Positions 1 through 15,991 of a DNA stretch of 20,207 nucleotides are shown here, one piece after another (the stretch's first letter is position 1; each line of letters begins with the position of its first letter). The notes below the pieces were generated by a model. It saw only the letters and a program-made list of their open reading frames with translations. It made no database searches and was not told the DNA's origin. The stretch is from a virus (Duplodnaviria > Heunggongvirae > Uroviricota > Caudoviricetes), in the IMG/VR virus record IMGVR_UViG_2718217714_000002, positions 1 to 20,207 of that record. The stretch is one strand, 5' to 3'. Both the position numbers and the translations under genes were made by a program.

Positions 1-225
1 ATGAAGATCGTAAAGGCTGAAGTTTTTGTTACCTGTCCGGGGCGTAATTTCGTCACATTAAAAATCACCACTGAGGACGGTATTACGGGCCTTGGGGATG
101 CCACCCTCAATGGACGTGAGCTTTCCGTGGCCTCTTATTTGCAGGATCACCTTTGTCCGCAGCTTATTGGTCGCGATGCGCACCGTATCGAAGATATCTG
201 GCAGTTTTTCTATAAAGGTGCTTAA
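1..225 (+). pseudogene. rspA: 5' fragment (74 codons) of rspA-like enolase-superfamily dehydratase gene, truncated at a prophage/deletion junction
   Basis: Translation [74 protein letters not shown] matches the N-terminus I recall for E. coli RspA (about 400 aa). The frame hits TAA at 223-225 where the native gene would continue (..KGAYW..). Downstream DNA is phage-like. Confidence 0.75.
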
Positions 226-2009: not shown

Positions 2010-2291
2010 ATGGAAGAATTAAGAATATTTCTCAATTCTCTTTCGTCAGATGAACAGCGTATGTTTGCATGCGAGTGTGGTACTAGCATCGGTTATCTAA
2101 GAAAGGCATTGAGTAAAGGTCAAGTGTTAGGGGCATCGTTATGTGTCCTTATTGAGCGAGCCAGTAATGGTGAAGTTACACGTCAGCAACTAAGGCCTTT
2201 TGATTGGATGAATATTTGGCCCGAGCTGGAAGATACCAAAATGTTAACACAACCACTTTCTAGGAGCTTGATTCATGAAAATCAAGCATGA
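2010..2291 (+). CDS. Cro-like transcriptional regulator (YdaS-like)
   Basis: 93-aa ORF first rightward of the operator, good SD, motif CECGTSIGYLRKALSKGQ. Position and size fit Rac YdaS / Cro-type proteins. Confidence 0.6.
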   Translation: MEELRIFLNSLSSDEQRMFACECGTSIGYLRKALSKGQVLGASLCVLIERASNGEVTRQQLRPFDWMNIWPELEDTKMLTQPLSRSLIHENQA

Positions 2292-2700
2292 ACACATCCG
2301 CATGGCGATGAATGCCTGGGCGCATCCGGACGGTGAAAAAGTTCCGGCAGCTGAAATAACCAGGGCTTATTTTGAACTGGGTATGACGTTCCCAGAACTG
2401 TATGACGACAGCCATCCGGAAGCCCTGGCTCGCAATACCCAGAAAATTTTCCGCTGGGTAGAGAAAGACACCCCTGATGCAGTTGAAAAAATTCAGGCGT
2501 TGTTACCAGCTATCGAAAAAGCAATGCCACCTCTGCTGGTGGCCCGAATGCGCAGCCATAGCTCAGCCTATTTTCGGGAACTAGTGGAGACGCGGGAACG
2601 ACTGGTGAGAGACGCTGATGATTTTGTCGCAGTGGCGATCGCTGGTTTCAACCAGATGAATCGTGGTGGCCCTGCAGGAAATATTGTGGCTGTGCATTGA
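2275..2700 (+). CDS. YdaT-like prophage protein (CII-like position)
   Basis: 141 aa, begins MKIKHEHI as I recall for Rac YdaT. Start overlaps the end of the Cro-like gene (translational coupling). Confidence 0.5.
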   Translation: MKIKHEHIRMAMNAWAHPDGEKVPAAEITRAYFELGMTFPELYDDSHPEALARNTQKIFRWVEKDTPDAVEKIQALLPAIEKAMPPLLVARMRSHSSAYFRELVETRERLVRDADDFVAVAIAGFNQMNRGGPAGNIVAVH

Positions 2701-2765: not shown

Positions 2766-3842
2766 GTGAGTATGGCTAACGCCTGGCTCAGATTATGGCA
2801 TGACATGCCAAATGACCCTAAGTGGCGAACAATTGCCAGGGTGTCAGGGCAGCCAATTGCAACAGTGATGGCAGTGTATATCCACCTCCTGGTGAGCGCG
2901 TCACGAAATGTCACGCGAGGTCACATTGATGTCACGACAGAAGATTTGGCAAGTGCGCTCGACGTGACAGAAGAGGTAATTGATTCAATTTTGCAGACGA
3001 TGCAGGGGCGGGTACTTGATGGTGATTTAATCACTGGATGGGAAAAACGCCAGGTGCTTAAAGAGGACAACGGCAATATTTCGCAAACCGCAAAATCTCC
3101 TGCAGAGCGCAAGAGGGCGCAGCGAGAGAGGGAAAGAAAGCGGGAACAAAATGGCGATTGTCACGGCGCGTCACGAAATGTCACGCACATGTCACGACGA
3201 GTCACGACAGATAAAGATACAGATAAAGATACAGATCAAGAAGATCAAAACACTATGGTCCATGGCGTAAAAAACGCCACGAACCAGGCAGGGGATGTTC
3301 AGACCGTCAATCTTGGTCAGCCAGCAGGCACGACACCGGAAGCCGATTCAGCGTATGCGCTGAAAGCCGATTCGGGCGCTGTGCAGCAGGTGATGACCGC
3401 AAGGGCGGAGCAATCACACCAACTGCAGCAGCCTGAAGCCGATTCCGCCATTCAGCGGGAAGCCGATCGGGTAGTCCCGGAAAACACCGGGCAGTCTGTG
3501 GGACGAGTGGATTATCCGGATGTGTTCGAACAGGTCTGGCGGGAGTACCCGTTGCGTGCTGGGGCAAACCCGAAGAAATCCGCTTTCAGTGCCTGGAAGG
3601 CCAGATTACGCGAGGGGGTGCCACCAGAGGCCATGCTGGATGGCGTGAGGCGTTACGCAAGATACTTGGCGGCTACCGGGAAAACGGGAACGGAATTTGT
3701 TCAGCGAGCGACGACGTTTTTTGGACCGGACCGGAATTTTGAGAACCCCTGGTTGCTCCCGGTAAGCGGCACGAACAACCAGCGTTGTGTGAATCATATT
3801 TCTGAACCGGATAACGAAATTCCGCCGGGCTTCAGGGGGTAA
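2766..3842 (+). CDS. Phage replication initiation protein (replisome organiser, YdaU/O-like) containing origin iterons
   Basis: 358-aa ORF in the replication position. Contains two clusters of 10-bp-phased GTCACG repeats inside the coding sequence, as in lambda O / ori. Acidic DKDTDKDTDQEDQ linker between domains. Confidence 0.6.
   Translation: MSMANAWLRLWHDMPNDPKWRTIARVSGQPIATVMAVYIHLLVSASRNVTRGHIDVTTEDLASALDVTEEVIDSILQTMQGRVLDGDLITGWEKRQVLKEDNGNISQTAKSPAERKRAQRERERKREQNGDCHGASRNVTHMSRRVTTDKDTDKDTDQEDQNTMVHGVKNATNQAGDVQTVNLGQPAGTTPEADSAYALKADSGAVQQVMTARAEQSHQLQQPEADSAIQREADRVVPENTGQSVGRVDYPDVFEQVWREYPLRAGANPKKSAFSAWKARLREGVPPEAMLDGVRRYARYLAATGKTGTEFVQRATTFFGPDRNFENPWLLPVSGTNNQRCVNHISEPDNEIPPGFRG
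2898..2940. repeat. Iteron cluster 1 (four GTCAC[G/A] copies at about 10-bp phasing)
   Basis: GTCACG at 2900, 2910, 2931 and GTCACA at 2920. The 19-mer GCGTCACGAAATGTCACGC (2898-2916) recurs exactly at 3168-3186. Confidence 0.6.
3160..3250. repeat. Iteron cluster 2 (five GTCACG copies) plus adjacent GATAAAGATACA tandem repeat
   Basis: GTCACG at 3160, 3170, 3180, 3191, 3201. Immediately followed by GATAAAGATACA x2 and GATCAAGAAGATCAA. Confidence 0.6.
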
Positions 3843-3882: not shown

Positions 3883-4305
3883 GTGGCAAAAGTTTTTACA
3901 CAAGAAGAGCGGGAAAAAATTAAAGGGCAGGTTCTTGAACTCGTACGCCAGAGTGGGCGCGAGACGTTACGACAACTGGAAGCTAAAACTGGGGCAACAA
4001 GATATCTGATGAGCGTTCTGGCCAGAGAGCTGGTTGCCAGTGGCGATGTATACAATTCTGGCTACGGGTTATTCCCGTCTGAACAGGCTCGTAAAGACTG
4101 GCAAAATGCCCGCAAAAAATTATCGAGGGCAAAGCTGAAGAAACCGGTTGTGGTTGATCCGGACCTTATCTGGTCATTACCTGACGGAGAAATACGTCGC
4201 TACGACAGTCGCCTAAACATAATCTGTCGCGAGTGCCGGAAGAGCGAAGTTATGCAGCGCATATTGTCGTTTTATCAGGGGGATGTTCGGTATTTATTGA
4301 AGTGA
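3883..4305 (+). CDS. Hypothetical protein, possible winged-helix DNA-binding; replication-module accessory
   Basis: 140-aa ORF with GTG start 3 nt after AGGAGG. No family recognised. Confidence 0.4.
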   Translation: MAKVFTQEEREKIKGQVLELVRQSGRETLRQLEAKTGATRYLMSVLARELVASGDVYNSGYGLFPSEQARKDWQNARKKLSRAKLKKPVVVDPDLIWSLPDGEIRRYDSRLNIICRECRKSEVMQRILSFYQGDVRYLLK

Positions 4306-4639: not shown

Positions 4640-6643
4640 ATGATTATGAGTGAAAATGATACAACCCCAAAGAAGTCTACAAGCCAGGTTAACAAAGCGG
4701 TATTCTTTACATCTGCTTTGCTAATTTTCCTTCTTGTCGCCTTTGCCGCCGTATTCCCGGATGTCGCCGACAAAAATTTTAAACTACTTCAGCAACAAAT
4801 CTTCACGAATGCCAGCTGGTTCTACATACTTGCTGTGGCCCTGATTTTACTGAGCGTCACGTTCCTTGGACTCTCACGTTACGGTGATATAAAGCTGGGC
4901 CCAGACCATGCGCAGCCTGATTTCAGCTACCACTCCTGGTTCGCGATGCTTTTTTCGGCAGGGATGGGGATCGGCCTGATGTTCTTTGGCGTTGCCGAAC
5001 CTGTGATGCATTATCTTTCGCCACCTGTCGGCACTCCAGAGACCGTTGCGGCAGCGAAGGAAGCCATGCGCCTGACGTTCTTCCACTGGGGTCTGCACGC
5101 ATGGGCAATTTATGCCATCGTGGCGCTGATTCTGGCCTTTTTCAGTTACCGTCACGGTCTGCCTTTAACGCTGCGTTCTGCGCTCTATCCCATTATCGGC
5201 GATCGCATTTACGGGCCTATAGGCCACGCGGTTGATATCTTCGCCGTGATAGGCACTGTCTTTGGCGTTGCAACATCGCTGGGTTACGGTGTATTGCAGG
5301 TGAATGCCGGTTTGAACCATCTTTTCGGCGTGCCCATCAATGAAACGGTACAGGTCATTTTGATCGTGGTCATCACGGGGTTAGCGACGATTTCGGTGGT
5401 GTCCGGCCTGGACAAGGGAATACGCATCCTGTCTGAGCTTAATCTGGGCCTGGCGGTGTTGCTCCTGGCGCTGGTCTTGTGCCTGGGTCCCACTGTGCTT
5501 CTGCTGAAGTCATTTGTGGAAAATACGGGTGGTTATCTGTCGGAACTGGTGAGTAAAACGTTCAACCTTTACGCGTATGAACCCAAGTCGAGCAACTGGC
5601 TGGGGGGCTGGACATTATTATACTGGGGATGGTGGCTTTCATGGTCGCCGTTTGTAGGTATGTTCATTGCACGCGTTTCCCGCGGCAGGACAATTCGTGA
5701 GTTCGTGACTGGCGTGTTGTTTGTTCCCGCCGGCTTTACGCTCATGTGGATGACGGTGTTTGGAAACAGCGCCATCTATCTCATCATGAACCAGGGCGCC
5801 ACTGACCTCGCCAATACCGTTCAGCAGGATGTTGCGCTTGCCCTGTTTAATTTCCTGGAGCATTTCCCGTTCTCTTCCGTGCTGTCATTCATTGCAATGG
5901 CGATGGTCATCGTCTTCTTTGTAACGTCTGCTGATTCGGGGGCAATGGTTGTGGATACTCTGGCATCAGGTGGGGTGGCAAACACGCCCGTCTGGCAGCG
6001 AATTTTCTGGGCATTGCTCATGGGCGTTGTTGCTATTGCCCTGCTGATCGCAGGGGGGCTGAGTGCGTTGCAAACCGTAACGATAGCGAGTGCATTGCCC
6101 TTCTCAGTTATCTTATTAATATCCATATACGGACTGTTAAAAGCCCTGCGTCGGGATTTGACCAAGCGTGAAAGCCTTAGCATGGCGACTATTGCTCCTA
6201 CGGCTGCACGTAACCCAATTCCCTGGCAGAGAAGGTTACGCAATATCGCGTATTTGCCGAAGCGCTCTCTTGTGAAACGTTTTATGGACGACATTATCCA
6301 ACCCGCCATGACGCTGGTTCAGGAGGAACTTAACAAGCAGGGAACGATAAGCCACATCAGTGACGCCGCCGAGGATCGTATTCGCCTTGAAGTCGATTTG
6401 GGCAACGAGCTGAATTATATATATGAAGTGAGGCTTCGCGGGTATAACTCACCGACCTTCGCGCTCGCTGCGCTGGATAATGATGAGCAGCAGAGTGAAC
6501 AACATCGATATTATCGCGCTGAAGTCTATCTCAAAGAGGGCGGCCAAAATTATGATGTAATGGGCTGGAATCAGGAACAGCTGATTAATGACATACTGGA
6601 CCAGTACGAAAAACACCTGCACTTCCTGCATCTGGTTCGTTAA
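4640..6643 (+). CDS. BCCT-family transporter, BetT-like (choline/betaine/carnitine type) with C-terminal cytoplasmic domain
   Basis: 667 aa. Multiple TM segments and BCCT signature region WTLLYWGWWLSWSPFVGMFIARVSRGRTIREF. Overall collinear with E. coli BetT as recalled, including the C-terminal ...ILDQYEKHLHFLHL tail. Confidence 0.85.
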   Translation: MIMSENDTTPKKSTSQVNKAVFFTSALLIFLLVAFAAVFPDVADKNFKLLQQQIFTNASWFYILAVALILLSVTFLGLSRYGDIKLGPDHAQPDFSYHSWFAMLFSAGMGIGLMFFGVAEPVMHYLSPPVGTPETVAAAKEAMRLTFFHWGLHAWAIYAIVALILAFFSYRHGLPLTLRSALYPIIGDRIYGPIGHAVDIFAVIGTVFGVATSLGYGVLQVNAGLNHLFGVPINETVQVILIVVITGLATISVVSGLDKGIRILSELNLGLAVLLLALVLCLGPTVLLLKSFVENTGGYLSELVSKTFNLYAYEPKSSNWLGGWTLLYWGWWLSWSPFVGMFIARVSRGRTIREFVTGVLFVPAGFTLMWMTVFGNSAIYLIMNQGATDLANTVQQDVALALFNFLEHFPFSSVLSFIAMAMVIVFFVTSADSGAMVVDTLASGGVANTPVWQRIFWALLMGVVAIALLIAGGLSALQTVTIASALPFSVILLISIYGLLKALRRDLTKRESLSMATIAPTAARNPIPWQRRLRNIAYLPKRSLVKRFMDDIIQPAMTLVQEELNKQGTISHISDAAEDRIRLEVDLGNELNYIYEVRLRGYNSPTFALAALDNDEQQSEQHRYYRAEVYLKEGGQNYDVMGWNQEQLINDILDQYEKHLHFLHLVR

Positions 6644-6650
6644 CAGCAAC

Positions 6651-6679
6651 ATGCCGCCACAGAGGCGGCATTTATTTAT
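6651..6679 (+). terminator. Rho-independent terminator after the BCCT gene
   Basis: Stem ATGCCGCC (6651-6658) / GGCGGCAT (6664-6671) followed by TTTATTTAT. Confidence 0.6.
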
Positions 6680-6691
6680 CCCGGCTGCAAT

Positions 6692-7984
6692 ATGAGGGAA
6701 TGCAGAATGATTTCACGCTGGAAATGGATGCTGAAGCAGACATTTAAAAAACTATGGTTCAGGGCAACGTTATTCGCAATTGTCGCAATAATAACGGCCC
6801 TTTTATCAATTCTTTTTAAATCAATGATACCTGAGTCGGTTTCCGTGAAGGTTGGTGCGGAAGCAGTCGATAACATTCTGAACATACTGGCATCGAGTAT
6901 GCTGGCAGTGACCACATTTTCGCTGAGCATCATGGTCACAGCCTACGGTTCAGCCACTACTAATGTGACTCCCAGAGCTACTCGTTTAGTCGTTGAAGAC
7001 GTCACCACACAAAATGTACTGGCCACCTTCATCGGTTCTTTTCTCTTCAGTCTGGTAGGGATTATTGCCCTCAATATGGGAGCTTATGGAGAAAGGGGGA
7101 GAGTCATTTTATTCATTGTAACACTGGTTGTCATTGCCTTAATCCTCATCACATTGCTTCGCTGGATACAGCATTTGACCTCTCTGGGGAGGGTTGGTGA
7201 GACAACGGCAAAAGTAGAACAGGCGGCCATCGAAACATTTATTGCGAGAGCAAGAAATCCCTGTCTCGGCGGATATCCATGGCTTGAGAACAATGAACAG
7301 CCGAAAGGAACGGTTGCAGTTTATCCGAAAAAGATTGGCTATGTTGAATATGTTGATATGGTGAAACTCAGCAAGCTGCTGACCAATGATCCCCGTCATG
7401 TATACCTCGTGGCGCAGCCGGGCAGTTTCATACATCCGTCCACGCCAGTTTTGTACCTGAGTCAGGGCCAGGAGTCATCAATCAGCACCGATTTACTTGA
7501 GACGATTATTGTCTCGGATGTACGTTCATTTGCTCAGGACCCCCGATTTTGTCTTAGCGTCATGGCCGAAATAGCCTGCCGAGCCCTTTCCCCCGCAGTG
7601 AACGATCCTGGAACCGCCATTGATGTCATTGGCAGAGGTGTACGTATACTTTCCGCTTACGCGCAGAATAAATCTGATGAAATAGAAGTGAAATATCCTT
7701 CTGTACATGTTGCACCACTTCAGAATAACGATCTACTTGAAGACTTTTTCTCACCTGTTGCGCGCGATGGTGCCAGTATGAGGGAAATTCAGATAAGGGT
7801 CCTTAAAGGACTGTCGATGCTGAGTAAGGGTTGGCCTGGAATTTTTGCTGAAGCCGCACAAACCCTAGCATTTGAAACATTAGAGCATGCTACTCGTGCT
7901 GACCATATAGATTCTGACAGATATCTAATAAAATCAATTTATTATAATTTATTTAGTGGCGAAGATTCTAATAAAAAACCATAG
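6692..7984 (+). CDS. Membrane protein with N-terminal TM helices and large C-terminal soluble domain (possibly DUF2254-like)
   Basis: 430-aa ORF. Hydrophobic helices in the first about 160 aa, then a soluble domain. Likely true start at ATG 6707 (GAGGGA SD 7 nt upstream). Family assignment is from memory of the architecture and is unverified. Confidence 0.55.
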   Translation: MRECRMISRWKWMLKQTFKKLWFRATLFAIVAIITALLSILFKSMIPESVSVKVGAEAVDNILNILASSMLAVTTFSLSIMVTAYGSATTNVTPRATRLVVEDVTTQNVLATFIGSFLFSLVGIIALNMGAYGERGRVILFIVTLVVIALILITLLRWIQHLTSLGRVGETTAKVEQAAIETFIARARNPCLGGYPWLENNEQPKGTVAVYPKKIGYVEYVDMVKLSKLLTNDPRHVYLVAQPGSFIHPSTPVLYLSQGQESSISTDLLETIIVSDVRSFAQDPRFCLSVMAEIACRALSPAVNDPGTAIDVIGRGVRILSAYAQNKSDEIEVKYPSVHVAPLQNNDLLEDFFSPVARDGASMREIQIRVLKGLSMLSKGWPGIFAEAAQTLAFETLEHATRADHIDSDRYLIKSIYYNLFSGEDSNKKP

Positions 7985-8266
7985 TTGCGGAGCAAGCGAT
8001 ACGGTTGTTGGCAAGTCAAGGGCAAAGCATTCGCGTGAGAGTGGGCGTCTGCTTTGTGCCAGGAGCGGAAGTTGCCAAGAGAACTCTTGCAAAGGTATGA
8101 TAACGTAGGTGCTAAATAATCATGAACCATAATAAATTAAAGGTTTTTAAGTTGACTCTATGGCGTTTCTTTTGCATGATGATTTTTTATTTATTATATA
8201 AAGCTTAAATATACATAATATTTAGCTTCATTTTTTTAGGTATTTTAAAGATTTAGAGGAATGTGA

Positions 8267-9610
8267 ATGGCTACTTATGCTTCTTATTTACCAGAATCAC
8301 AAATTATCACTTTGTGCAAGGATTTCCCAGCGTTTACTGATCCTGAAAAATTAGATGGATTCATTAATCCAGAACAGTTTGGCGTGTTTTTTCATGAGTG
8401 GATTCATTTTCTTCACAATATTTCCACAATTAATGGGTTTTCTATTTTTTGCACGCAAAACATCCTGTGGTCTAATTTTCGCTGGGCAATGGACAATCAG
8501 GATGTATGTCTTGGTTCAAATGACATGGATCCAGCACATATCGAATCAAACAAAAATTTTCTCAGTTACATTCGTTCCAATAGGAGTCCGCATAAATGTA
8601 ACTTACCTTATTATGTAAAAGTAAACGACTTGTATTTTGAGGATGCAATAATCCATGACATGGAGGTTGCTGACGGTAGTGTTATATGTACATCATTAAT
8701 AAAGTGTAGAATTTCTCATTCTGAAAACAAATACGATCTAGATTTAGGCGTGCTTGAAATACTTGAATCCGCAGCTTTTATGCTTGAATGTAAGTGTATT
8801 AATGCGATGAATGGCTTCCCTCAAGAGGCACCCTTTTATCCGTATCATACTATCAAGGGCTTAGCAGCGAAAATTGCTCCGTCATTAAATGATGAAGATA
8901 TTATTTGTTGTATGTTAGCTTCTTTGCAATCTAATAACCCTCCCCAAGTATTATTCAATCTACTACATAAATGTGAATTATTACATTCTGATTGTAGGTA
9001 TGAACATCTAGTGGCGGAGGTGAAAAAACAATTAAGCGAACAAGATCAAATAATAAGCGAGTCACTTAATCAAATAATTCAAATGATTCCTGTTGATGAA
9101 CCGATGGGAAACTTTATCAAGCTTACTCTTAACAGAATAAGTAACAATTTGAACTATAGAAAGCAAAAACCGTTTTTTGAGTTAGATATAATAAAAAAAA
9201 TAGCAGAAAAAACTGAGTTTATGAATGAAGTAATACAGAAATTCGGTGGTTGCACTATCATCCAGGTAAGACATGGAGATGATAATGAACCACAGCGTGA
9301 TATTATGTATGACTTTTGCTTACCTGAAAATAATGATTCAATTTTATTTGGTTCGAAAATGCTACGCGCTTGTTTTCACTTTATATTTATTCACTTTAAA
9401 CTTTCTGGTGAAATCATGAAGACAGAAGAATTAAATATTTCGCCGCGTAATAAATGCCCATTTTATACTGTTTGCTGTGCATCAATTCGAGCTAATAATA
9501 GTAATATCTGCGCTGAATCCCCTTGGAAATCAATGTCTATTGATGACAACAAAGGTTGTTATTATGCAGCAGCGATTAAAGCTACTAACCCACCAGTTTT
9601 GCCGGATTAA
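8267..9610 (+). CDS. Hypothetical 447-aa protein with N-terminal HExxH motif (possible zinc metallopeptidase-like), in an AT-rich island
   Basis: Long ORF with AGAGGA SD. FFHEWIHFLHN at residues about 41-51. Cys-rich C-terminal part. Markedly AT-rich by eye relative to neighbours. No family recognised. Confidence 0.6.
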   Translation: MATYASYLPESQIITLCKDFPAFTDPEKLDGFINPEQFGVFFHEWIHFLHNISTINGFSIFCTQNILWSNFRWAMDNQDVCLGSNDMDPAHIESNKNFLSYIRSNRSPHKCNLPYYVKVNDLYFEDAIIHDMEVADGSVICTSLIKCRISHSENKYDLDLGVLEILESAAFMLECKCINAMNGFPQEAPFYPYHTIKGLAAKIAPSLNDEDIICCMLASLQSNNPPQVLFNLLHKCELLHSDCRYEHLVAEVKKQLSEQDQIISESLNQIIQMIPVDEPMGNFIKLTLNRISNNLNYRKQKPFFELDIIKKIAEKTEFMNEVIQKFGGCTIIQVRHGDDNEPQRDIMYDFCLPENNDSILFGSKMLRACFHFIFIHFKLSGEIMKTEELNISPRNKCPFYTVCCASIRANNSNICAESPWKSMSIDDNKGCYYAAAIKATNPPVLPD

Positions 9611-10156
9611 GAATAGTGTTCTATCTGATAAATATAAAATATTTAAGGTCAGGTCTGCTTATCGCTCAAAGCGGACTAGAAGGTTAGCTTGCGTCGGACT
9701 TGGCGTATTTAAAGAAGTACTGGTGGTGACTGGTTGTTGTGTTCCATTTCTACAGAACAAAATCACAGAAACTATACCCAATAGTTGTATCTCATCAATG
9801 ATGAGACAGCCTCATATTTATCAGGACTGGTGTACGTCCAATACAGGAGGTTGTCGTGCTGGTTCTCAAATGTGCGCTGGCTATTGCAGCTGTAATGGCA
9901 ATTTATTGTCTTGCTGTTGTTCTTATGGATCGCCTTTCTGATTGATTTTATATTGGCGAGGTAACGGGAGTTAAGTAGAATGGCTGCGGGTGCTTGAGGC
10001 TATCTGTCTCAGGCATGAACACCAAAGGCAGATAGAGAAAAGCCCCAGTTAACATTACGCGTCCTGCAAGACGCTTAACATTAATCTGAGGCTCAATCTA
10101 TGAACGGCAAATCTAGGTTAGCCTCTTACGTGCCGAAAGGCAAGGAGAAGCAGGCT

Positions 10157-10312
10157 ATGAAGCAGCAAAAGGCGATGTTAATCGCCCTGATCGTCATCTG
10201 TTTAACCGTCATAGTGACGGCACTGGTAACGAGGAAAGACCTCTGCGAGGTACGAATCCGAACCGGCCAGACGGAGGTCGCTGTCTTCACAGCTTACGAA
10301 CCTGAGGAGTAA
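10157..10312 (+). CDS. hokD: Hok/Gef-family type I toxin (HokD/RelF-like, 51 aa)
   Basis: MKQQKAMLIALIVICLTVIVTALVTRKDLCEVRIRTGQTEVAVFTAYEPEE matches Hok-family sequence as recalled. AAGGAG SD upstream. Overlapping upstream mok-like frame from 10100. 5' tac-like (about 9985-10000) and 3' fbi-like (about 10350-10376) complementary elements. Confidence 0.85.
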   Translation: MKQQKAMLIALIVICLTVIVTALVTRKDLCEVRIRTGQTEVAVFTAYEPEE

Positions 10313-15837: not shown

Positions 15838-15913
<76 letters not shown>

Positions 15914-15916
15914 TAT

Positions 15917-15991
<75 letters not shown>

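Follow-up and report, generated by a model that had tools for sequence, protein, structure and literature searches.

The DNA analyzed here was positions 1 to 20,207 of IMG/VR virus record IMGVR_UViG_2718217714_000002 (Caudoviricetes), and we refer to this whole stretch of 20,207 nucleotides (nt) as the window. The window was an Escherichia coli/Shigella chromosomal segment carrying a prophage remnant, and a first-pass annotation of its sequence had proposed that a phage replication origin was embedded in the gene for the replication initiator. This gene encodes a protein of 356 amino acids (aa). Inside its open reading frame (ORF; 2766/2772-3842, depending on the start codon), we found two arrays of short direct repeats (iterons), a single inverted copy of the repeat, an A-rich tract, and an imperfect palindrome (Table 1). 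The direct and inverted iterons and the A-rich tract were all contained within the ORF, as had been claimed for the direct iterons and the tandem repeat.

Cluster 1 consisted of four copies (GTCACG at 2900 and 2910, GTCACA at 2920, and GTCACG at 2931) spaced at 10, 10, and 11 bp, and cluster 2 consisted of five GTCACG copies (3160, 3170, 3180, 3191, and 3201) spaced at 10, 10, 11, and 10 bp. The sixth base was G in eight of the nine same-strand copies and A in the copy at 2920, and the distance between the two arrays was 260 bp. Thus, the two clusters of four and five copies at about 10-bp intervals were placed correctly by the first-pass annotation. Its count of nine held for the same-strand copies, but a tenth copy, in inverted orientation and 27 bp downstream of cluster 1, had been missed. 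Similarly, the 19-mer reported to be identical in both clusters (2898-2916 and 3168-3186) was real, but the full common word was 21 nt long (GCGCGTCACGAAATGTCACGC; 2896-2916 and 3166-3186). Tandem Repeats Finder also picked up the period-10 array and, in agreement with the tandem repeat noted after the iterons, a period-12 array of ACAGATAAAGAT with 2.9 copies at 3207-3241.

The hexamer GTCACG was found 17 times in the window versus 6.3 +/- 2.5 times expected, and no shuffled sequence reached 17. Nine of the 17 copies were located in the 310-bp stretch at 2900-3206. The densest 50 nt contained five same-strand GTCAC copies, compared to a maximum of three in 2000 first-order Markov simulations. 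A DnaA-dependent origin was ruled out because no DnaA box (TTATNCACA, up to one mismatch) was present in 2890-3260; the number of such boxes in the window equaled chance. Internal matches to the sigma-70 promoter consensus were also at chance level (3 found, 4.1 expected). One sigma-70-like match (GTGACA-16-GACAAT, 9 of 12 positions, minus strand, 3184-3157) was formed by part of the complement of cluster 2, and it was probably meaningless because promoter-like matches in the region were at chance level overall.

Selection on the arrays and the A-rich tract

A protein search with the N-terminal 165 aa of the initiator yielded 952 homologs, which were named "phage replisome organizer" by NCBI. 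We fetched 39 genomic loci using degenerate back-translated peptide patterns, which introduced no bias in codon choice, and annotated Pseudomonas and Aeromonas phages were added to the locus set. The arrays were located at the same gene positions in Escherichia, Pseudomonas, Aeromonas, Bordetella, Acidovorax, and other gamma- and betaproteobacterial genera. Specifically, loci of the GTCAC class carried four copies at about gene nt 129-160 and three to five copies at about gene nt 387-430, and most of them carried the inverted copy at about nt 193.

For the codon comparison, we used 24 GTCAC-class genes with a mean nucleotide identity of 69% over the first 300 nt (minimum, 61%). The mean codon entropy was 0.11 bit when the third base was in a hexamer (n=7) versus 1.44 bit at other conserved residues (n=47; Mann-Whitney p 3e-5). 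In cluster 1, the codons for V47 (GTC), T48 (ACG), G50 (GGT), and V54 (GTC) were identical in all 24 genes, S44 was TCA in 23 of 24, and H51 was CAC in 23 of 23. In the inverted copy, V65 was GTG in all 20 sequences that had Val at this position. Synonymous codons were used freely in the same 24 genes at similarly conserved residues outside the hexamers. In addition, the frame offsets of the nine same-strand copies in the window were 2, 0, 1, and 0 in cluster 1 and 1, 2, 0, 2, and 0 in cluster 2, which means that all three reading frames were used and that no single peptide motif can explain the nine copies. Because synonymous codons were frozen where the motif overlapped them and the copies fell in three frames, the gene comparison indicated that the repeats are constrained as DNA, independently of the encoded protein. 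Recent common ancestry was rejected as the cause of the hexamer identity; at the levels of gene identity given above, the spacers varied and the hexamers did not.

These data bear directly on the idea that the repeats are a peptide motif (SRNVT or VT) required by the protein and have no meaning at the DNA level. The SRNVT, RGH, and DVT peptides were highly conserved in the alignment, as this idea predicts, but synonymous positions were fixed only inside hexamers, and cluster 2 was in a linker whose remaining sequence was not conserved. A peptide repeat was ruled out by the frame usage and the frozen synonymous sites, and its probability is next to nil. The origin proposal thus withstood the explanation of the repeats at the protein level alone, with array positions that were also kept across genera.

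Cluster 1 coded for aa 43-55, which span the last part of a helix and the loop after it, and cluster 2 coded for aa 130-146, which are in a linker predicted to be disordered (predicted local distance difference test score below 50). According to the structure model, both arrays fall in coding segments that are structurally permissive for the protein. Because the arrays encode a loop and a disordered linker, the DNA code appears to be placed where the protein tolerates it.

We then considered the A-rich, purine-skewed tract, which is the proposed DNA-unwinding element (DUE). The least stable 40-mer of the ORF started at 3211, with a dG of -43.4 versus a window mean of -53.9, which placed it in the top 1.7% of the window; purines made up 75% of the top strand in this least stable stretch. 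In all 25 GTCAC-class loci, cluster 2 had 3-5 copies spaced at 10 bp (occasionally 11 bp), and its last iteron was followed directly by 30-40 nt of (GATAAA/GATACA)n that were 60-82% AT and purine rich on the top strand. The GAT:GAC ratio in the tract codons of related genes was 83:4 versus 248:271 in the rest of the same genes, and the AAA:AAG ratio was 66:5 versus 182:190. The bias toward GAT and AAA in the tract persisted in hosts with a GC content at third codon positions of 0.64 or more. Because this codon bias was confined to the tract and was also found in GC-rich hosts, the tract, like the hexamers, is under selection as DNA.

Two GATC (Dam) sites were present at the distal end of the tract (3234-3237 and 3243-3246). 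Several relatives, most of them enterobacterial (L004, L011, L018, L026, L030, and L039), likewise had GATC in the tract, and these sites could place the origin under Dam/SeqA control.

An imperfect palindrome was located just 3' of the tract. It formed a 13-pair stem in a terminator-like scan, and its DNA fold had an energy of -8.7 kcal/mol (z -2.85). In ori-lambda, a palindrome flanks the AT-rich region on the right. Inverted repeats of unrelated sequence were modestly enriched at the same place in relatives (7.0 versus 6.0 pairs, p 0.003, with a crude stem counter), and the inverted repeat after the tract equaled or exceeded the control maximum in 11 of the 25 loci. This comparison is only suggestive of a conserved hairpin after the tract, and we make no claim for this element.

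Iteron classes and their distribution

The unit consensus in the GTCAC class was roughly (A/G)TGTCACG(A/C), in which only GTCAC(G) was tightly fixed. Copy number varied between relatives. In the Escherichia albertii locus L007, cluster 1 (gene nt 129-181) had six copies rather than four as the result of a 21-nt insertion, which adds seven residues (TTCHGVS-like) to the loop. As judged from the sequences, this locus provides evidence from nature that the number of iterons can change at a cost to the protein.

Variation by whole units and the fact that the repeats are transcribed would both fit an explanation in which the repeats act in RNA, through mRNA structure, as the target of a small RNA, or by causing ribosomes to pause, or are simply a slippage-prone repeat with no cis function. 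However, the hexamer bases were invariant across the 69%-identical genes while the spacers varied, and neutral slippage would not freeze codons. The conservation of the inverted copy also argued against this explanation, and the 10-11-bp period fits the helical repeat of a DNA duplex. The only Rfam matches in the window above the gathering threshold were DicF, sok, and two tRNAs; all of these were outside the initiator gene, which ruled out a known RNA element. We consider action in RNA or slippage highly improbable.

In more distant relatives (about 50-60% identity), GTCAC was absent, and other phased hexamer arrays occupied the same two gene positions. Specifically, we found a GTAACG class (L027, L029, L037, and L039), a CGAACGC class (L034, L036, L038, and L042), and a dense CGTCACG array (L031). 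An ACG core was common to all of the classes, and a GATAAA-type tract still followed the arrays in each of the alternative classes. The sequence of the cluster 1 loop was SRNVTRGHxDVT in the GTCACG class, NATERGRTQNV in the CGAACGC class, and NPVTDEAGVTLHIVTVT in the GTAACG class. Hexamers differed among subgroups of the N-terminal domain (N-domain) at fixed positions, as would be expected of cognate initiator/iteron pairs, but part of this association is automatic because cluster 1 is inside the gene.

The layout of two arrays also raised the possibility that the initiator binds them mainly for control, either to repress its own gene or to limit firing by handcuffing or looping; in one version, the origin is cluster 2 and the tract only, and cluster 1 is a regulator. 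The separation of the arrays by 260 bp and the extra inverted copy are in line with such a role, and three distant relatives (L033, L035, and L040) seemed to keep only the cluster 2-like element. Second clusters of sites are also used by iteron plasmids and by P4 (ori and crr). On the other hand, both clusters were kept in every iteron class examined, and cluster 2 abutted a strongly selected tract of low stability that a pure operator does not need. A mainly regulatory role is unlikely, and it overlaps with a role in replication rather than excluding it.

Could another protein read the hexamers, such as a host factor or an early regulator of the Cro-like, YdaT/CII-like, or DUF977/Ren-like type? 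Genes for helix-turn-helix proteins flank the initiator gene on either side, and binding of the initiator to the hexamers is itself a prediction. However, within +/-3 kb of the 25 GTCAC-class loci, only the N-domain was always present (25 of 25), whereas the neighboring regulators were found in two to four loci each (DUF977, 2; YdaT-like, 3; Cro-like, 4; repressor, 2). The window-type C-terminal domain was found in two. The hosts ranged from Escherichia to Bordetella and Acidovorax, and the hexamer differed between closely related initiators, both of which speak against a fixed host factor. The region was also devoid of DnaA boxes. Thus, a different reader is very unlikely.

An unbiased scan of IMG/VR viral contigs with the pattern GTCAC-N5-GTCAC-N5-GTCAC identified 120 loci, and 60 of these were inside N-domain homologs at the expected offsets. 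Among 11 other multicopy arrays that were inspected, seven were in ORFs with a similar layout, as judged by eye from translations: the array came after a basic helix, which itself followed a putative DNA-binding domain at the N terminus, and at least two of the seven also had a purine-rich tract. These seven ORFs (L146, L198, L235, L208, L242, L213, and L138) contained 4-8 phased GTCAC copies and had no similarity to the window N-domain that was detectable by tblastn; the arrays in L146 and L235 ran into a purine-rich tract of the ACAG/ACAA type. Origins of this design may occur far outside the present family.

Two loci from Serratia and Pantoea (L041 and L043) encoded the N-domain followed, after about aa 100, by an insert (YVYYVxxxxGxxxxVGISxNPWAR...) that by appearance resembled a GIY-YIG/T5orf172-type motif. 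Neither gene showed hexamer arrays, and the N-domain may have been recruited to another function in these loci.

Relatives of the initiator spanned gamma- and betaproteobacterial prophages, as well as Pseudomonas and Aeromonas phages. Of 5426 complete E. coli genomes, 2076 carried the origin segment (2860-3290, 431 bp), at up to four copies each. Among the eight matches listed, the origin-bearing gene was labeled "hypothetical protein" by RefSeq in the six close ones.

The initiator protein and the proposed origin

The initiator matched phrog_3729 ("replication initiation protein") from end to end (E 2e-257), and its aa 122-356 matched phrog_1701 ("DnaD-like helicase loader"; E 8e-63). Weak matches to PHROG replisome organizers were also found (phrog_4880, E 6e-6; phrog_5968, E 2e-4). 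No Pfam family, including the lambda O family, PF09681, and DnaD, matched the 356-aa protein at E<=0.01, which ruled out membership in the lambda O family or in the Pfam replisome organizer family; "DNA replication protein O" is only a depositors' label in some phage records. The DNA of the initiator gene was 98-99.5% identical to that of phages Tritos, Evi, and vB_EcoS-689R5.

The N-domain had a winged-helix fold, and its nearest relative was the N-terminal domain of DnaD, so that the domain is of the DnaD N-terminal-domain type. At the other end of the protein, the last 22-24 residues matched "Primosomal protein 1 / DnaT" entries 6aep, 2ru8, and 9zbt in a phmmer search of PDB sequences (E 0.003-0.07), and the proteins of several relatives ended in IPxGFRG. 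The initiator was not a DnaT ortholog because its score with the full-length NCBIfam DnaT model was 19.2 bits versus a cutoff of 201, and only residues 333-356 aligned. The E. coli versions, that of the complete Tritos genome among them, had no loader or helicase gene after the initiator gene. A DnaC-like gene was located downstream of the initiator gene in an Aeromonas phage and in Shigella phage 75/02 Stx. The Shigella phage protein had only the C-terminal half in common with the window protein, and its gene lacked an array.

A further repeat was present in the linker between the initiator halves (3336-3467). Four in-frame copies of GAAGCCGAT(T/C) at 3339, 3363 (AAAGCCGAT), 3435, and 3459 coded for PEADS, KADS, PEADS, and EADR, in 36-nt units that were 75% alike (family D2). 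Because all of the copies were in one frame, this may be a peptide repeat. The PEADS peptide was common to the initiator and the Shigella phage 75/02 Stx protein.

The region is likely to serve a family of temperate-phage replication modules as their origin of vegetative replication, overprinted on the gene for the module's own initiator. In the best reading, the origin consists of two-part iteron arrays and an unwinding element laid over the loop- and linker-coding parts of the gene. The first-pass proposal of an origin within the initiator gene was supported in this respect, with the correction that the origin has two parts. Direct support comes from the anatomy, the purifying selection on the hexamers and the tract as DNA, the change of hexamer at fixed positions, the exclusive coinheritance with the N-domain, the low stability of the duplex, and the fold; from these we infer that the initiator binds the repeats, that looping and melting take place, that the helicase is recruited, and that replication actually occurs. 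The initiator would be made from the early rightward operon, and its N-terminal DnaD-like winged-helix domain would bind the 6-bp core GTCACG. With copies repeated every 10-11 bp, each of the two arrays would seat four or five protomers side by side on the same face of the helix, and the arrays may be bridged through oligomerization of the protein. The distortion would then pass to the adjacent weak (GATAAA)n tract and lead to melting, and the variable C-terminal domain would bring in the helicase. In the E. coli version, the DnaD-like C-terminal domain with its DnaT-like tail presumably recruits host DnaB-DnaC because no phage loader gene follows the initiator gene.

We also considered whether the origin is more than iterons plus a weak tract, namely, whether it includes a self-referential loop or a single-strand GATAAA track. 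This is rather doubtful. In the case of the loop, aa 43-55, which change with the hexamer class, would help read the DNA, and site and reader would be the same stretch of DNA; if so, one mutation would change both, which would be a built-in route to new origin specificities. In the case of the track, the conserved GATAAA periodicity may provide sequence-specific contacts with a single strand, by analogy with DnaA-trios or the contacts between Rep proteins and the DUE. The initiator would form a filament on this track, and the DnaT-like tail would load host DnaB-DnaC without a phage loader.

The arrangement resembled that of lambda ori/O, including the variants in the Stx phages P27 and 933W, in that the origin is in the middle of the initiator ORF and direct repeats are followed by an AT-rich unwinding tract (PMC7466680). 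It also resembled lambda in the proposed division of labor, since the lambda initiator reads the repeats with its N-terminal part and handles the helicase loader with its C-terminal part. The E. albertii locus, with its gain of two copies and 7 aa, is similar to the Stx phage O genes, in which two extra iterons add 13 aa in frame (PMC7466680). However, the initiator had no sequence relation to O (no Pfam match), and its fold was DnaD-like. Lambda iterons are about 19 bp long and have internal inverted symmetry. In contrast, the cores here were 6 bp, with weakly constrained flanks and a 10-11-bp period, and no obvious dyad was seen in the aligned units, symmetry being viewed in the alignment only. 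The layout also differs from that of lambda: two arrays are separated by 260 bp and accompanied by an inverted copy, one of the arrays is located within the coding region of the DNA-binding domain, and in the E. coli version the initiator gene is not followed by a P-like loader gene. Thus, the lambda O/ori arrangement named by the first-pass annotation stood as an analogy, with iterons and an AT-rich tract in the initiator ORF, but not as homology.

The replisome organizers of phages of Gram-positive bacteria (SPP1 G38P, the lactococcal proteins, and PF09681) and DnaD share with the window protein the winged helix of the DnaD N-terminal-domain type. The origin repeats of SPP1 (oriL) are located within the organizer's own gene 38 (PMC6316719, PMC5737612), as are the repeats here. 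The NCBI name of the relatives and the weak PHROG matches point in the same direction. The differences are the lack of a PF09681 or DnaD match at E 0.01, the proteobacterial hosts, the type of repeat and its two-part layout, and C-terminal domains that are freely swapped (DnaT-like, DnaD-like, and others). In the case of E. coli DnaT, the last ~24 residues of the initiator (VNHISEPDNEIPPGFRG) matched its C-terminal tail, and many relatives had the Pfam DnaT-like domain that binds single-stranded DNA (PF17948). The C-terminal domain of DnaT forms filaments on single-stranded DNA at the site of helicase loading (PMC13377028). Only the tail matched in the window protein, however, and DnaT has neither a sequence-specific duplex-binding domain nor an origin.

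In iteron plasmids (RK2 TrfA and F RepE), a winged-helix initiator acts at direct repeats beside a DUE with sequence-specific content, and the Rep protein binds to one of the strands in the AT-rich region as well (PMC4081077). The strongly conserved GATAAA periodicity found here parallels such a sequence-specific DUE. In contrast to the arrays described here, plasmid iterons are about 17-22 bp long and are outside the rep ORF, and DnaA boxes, which were absent here, are usually involved. The best reading of these comparisons is that the initiator belongs with the DnaD-like replisome organizers and that it functions like lambda ori/O without being a member of the O family.

We found no description of this origin in the searchable literature on GTCACG iterons, on replisome organizer origins, or on non-lambdoid Stx replication regions. 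The Eru replication types of Llarena et al. are other modules, and origins were not discussed in that work (PMC8044961). The kind of origin is textbook; the family that carries it here is uncharacterized but very common. Once the origin and its cognate reader are known, the compatibility of replication modules among these phages can be mapped in a form open to testing, and swap experiments can draw on three specificity classes. The locus is also a clean natural case of dual coding, in which a protein-coding sequence is under base-by-base constraint from a DNA-binding code. Finally, the combination of a DnaT-like tail with the lack of a phage loader suggests a means by which the host machinery for helicase loading could be hijacked.

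The prophage remnant

As shown in Table 1, the initiator gene was preceded by an immunity region and by host sequence. About 70 bases separated the truncation of rspA from the DicF RNA. The order downstream of the DUF977/Ren-like gene was cargo genes, hok/sok, DUF968, RusA, antiterminator Q, a DNA methylase, two tRNAs, tail fiber fragments, and a host major facilitator superfamily transporter.

Table 1. Features of the window, in order of position
Feature	Coordinates	Strand	Remarks
Start of rspA	1-225		Cut at codon 74
DicF RNA	298-349	minus	Rfam, 76.7 bits
ydfC/ydfB-like genes			After DicF; based on position relative to annotated locus L001
Repressor	1490-1909	minus	139 aa; immunity region
Cro/YdaS-like gene	2010-2291		Immunity region
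YdaT/CII-like gene	2275-2700		Immunity region
Initiator ("phage replisome organizer") gene	2772-3842	plus	356 aa; ATG at 2772; in-frame GTG at 2766
N-terminal winged-helix domain	2799-3056	plus	About aa 10-95; proposed iteron reader
Iteron cluster 1	2898-2939	plus	Four direct copies
Inverted GTCACG	2963-2968	minus	Single copy
Iteron cluster 2	3159-3209	plus	Five direct copies
A-rich, purine-skewed tract	3207-3250		GATAAAGATACA x2.9, then GATCAAGAAGATCAAAA; proposed DUE
Imperfect palindrome	3256-3286		Possible origin element (weak evidence)
C-terminal tail of initiator	3768-3842	plus	aa 333-356, ...VNHISEPDNEIPPGFRG; resembles host DnaT C-terminal tail
DUF977/Ren-like gene	3883-4305		3' of initiator ORF
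BCCT-family transporter	4640-6643		
DUF2254	6692-7984		
447-aa ORF	8267-9610		No Pfam match
sok antitoxin RNA	9988-10162		110 bits
Two adjacent tRNA genes	15838-15988		Between methylase and tail fiber fragments

In other E. coli strains, the same module was part of a full prophage beside rspAB with integrase, excisionase, and exonuclease genes. Strain JNEC-KY178 carried rspA, rspB, the integrase, excisionase, and exonuclease genes, ydfD, and dicB between the point at which rspA is cut in the window and DicF, which indicated that a deletion took the left arm of the prophage and part of rspA in the window genome. Because the integrase, excisionase, exonuclease, lysis, terminase, and head genes were absent from the window, the earlier description of the phage as structurally dead was a fair one. 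The origin segment (2890-3260) matched the complete phage genome Tritos at every position (100% identity), and the initiator ORF differed from that of Tritos at 11 positions, all beyond 3400. On the basis of this comparison, the origin and initiator look intact in a prophage that is unable to make particles, which supports the earlier view of an intact origin in a dead phage.

Ectopic lambda origin copies can inhibit a superinfecting phage (PMC4488673, PMC3349717). By analogy, it is plausible that the remnant origin could fire or titrate the initiator of a superinfecting phage, and remnants such as this one are possible sites of in situ over-replication or decoys against related superinfecting phages.

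The cargo genes between the replication module and hok/sok (4640-9610) were non-phage in appearance, and a different gene occupied this position in phage Tritos. An S1 peptidase was annotated near the position of the 447-aa ORF in a related strain, and hokD was annotated at the place equivalent to hok/sok in a related strain and in Tritos.

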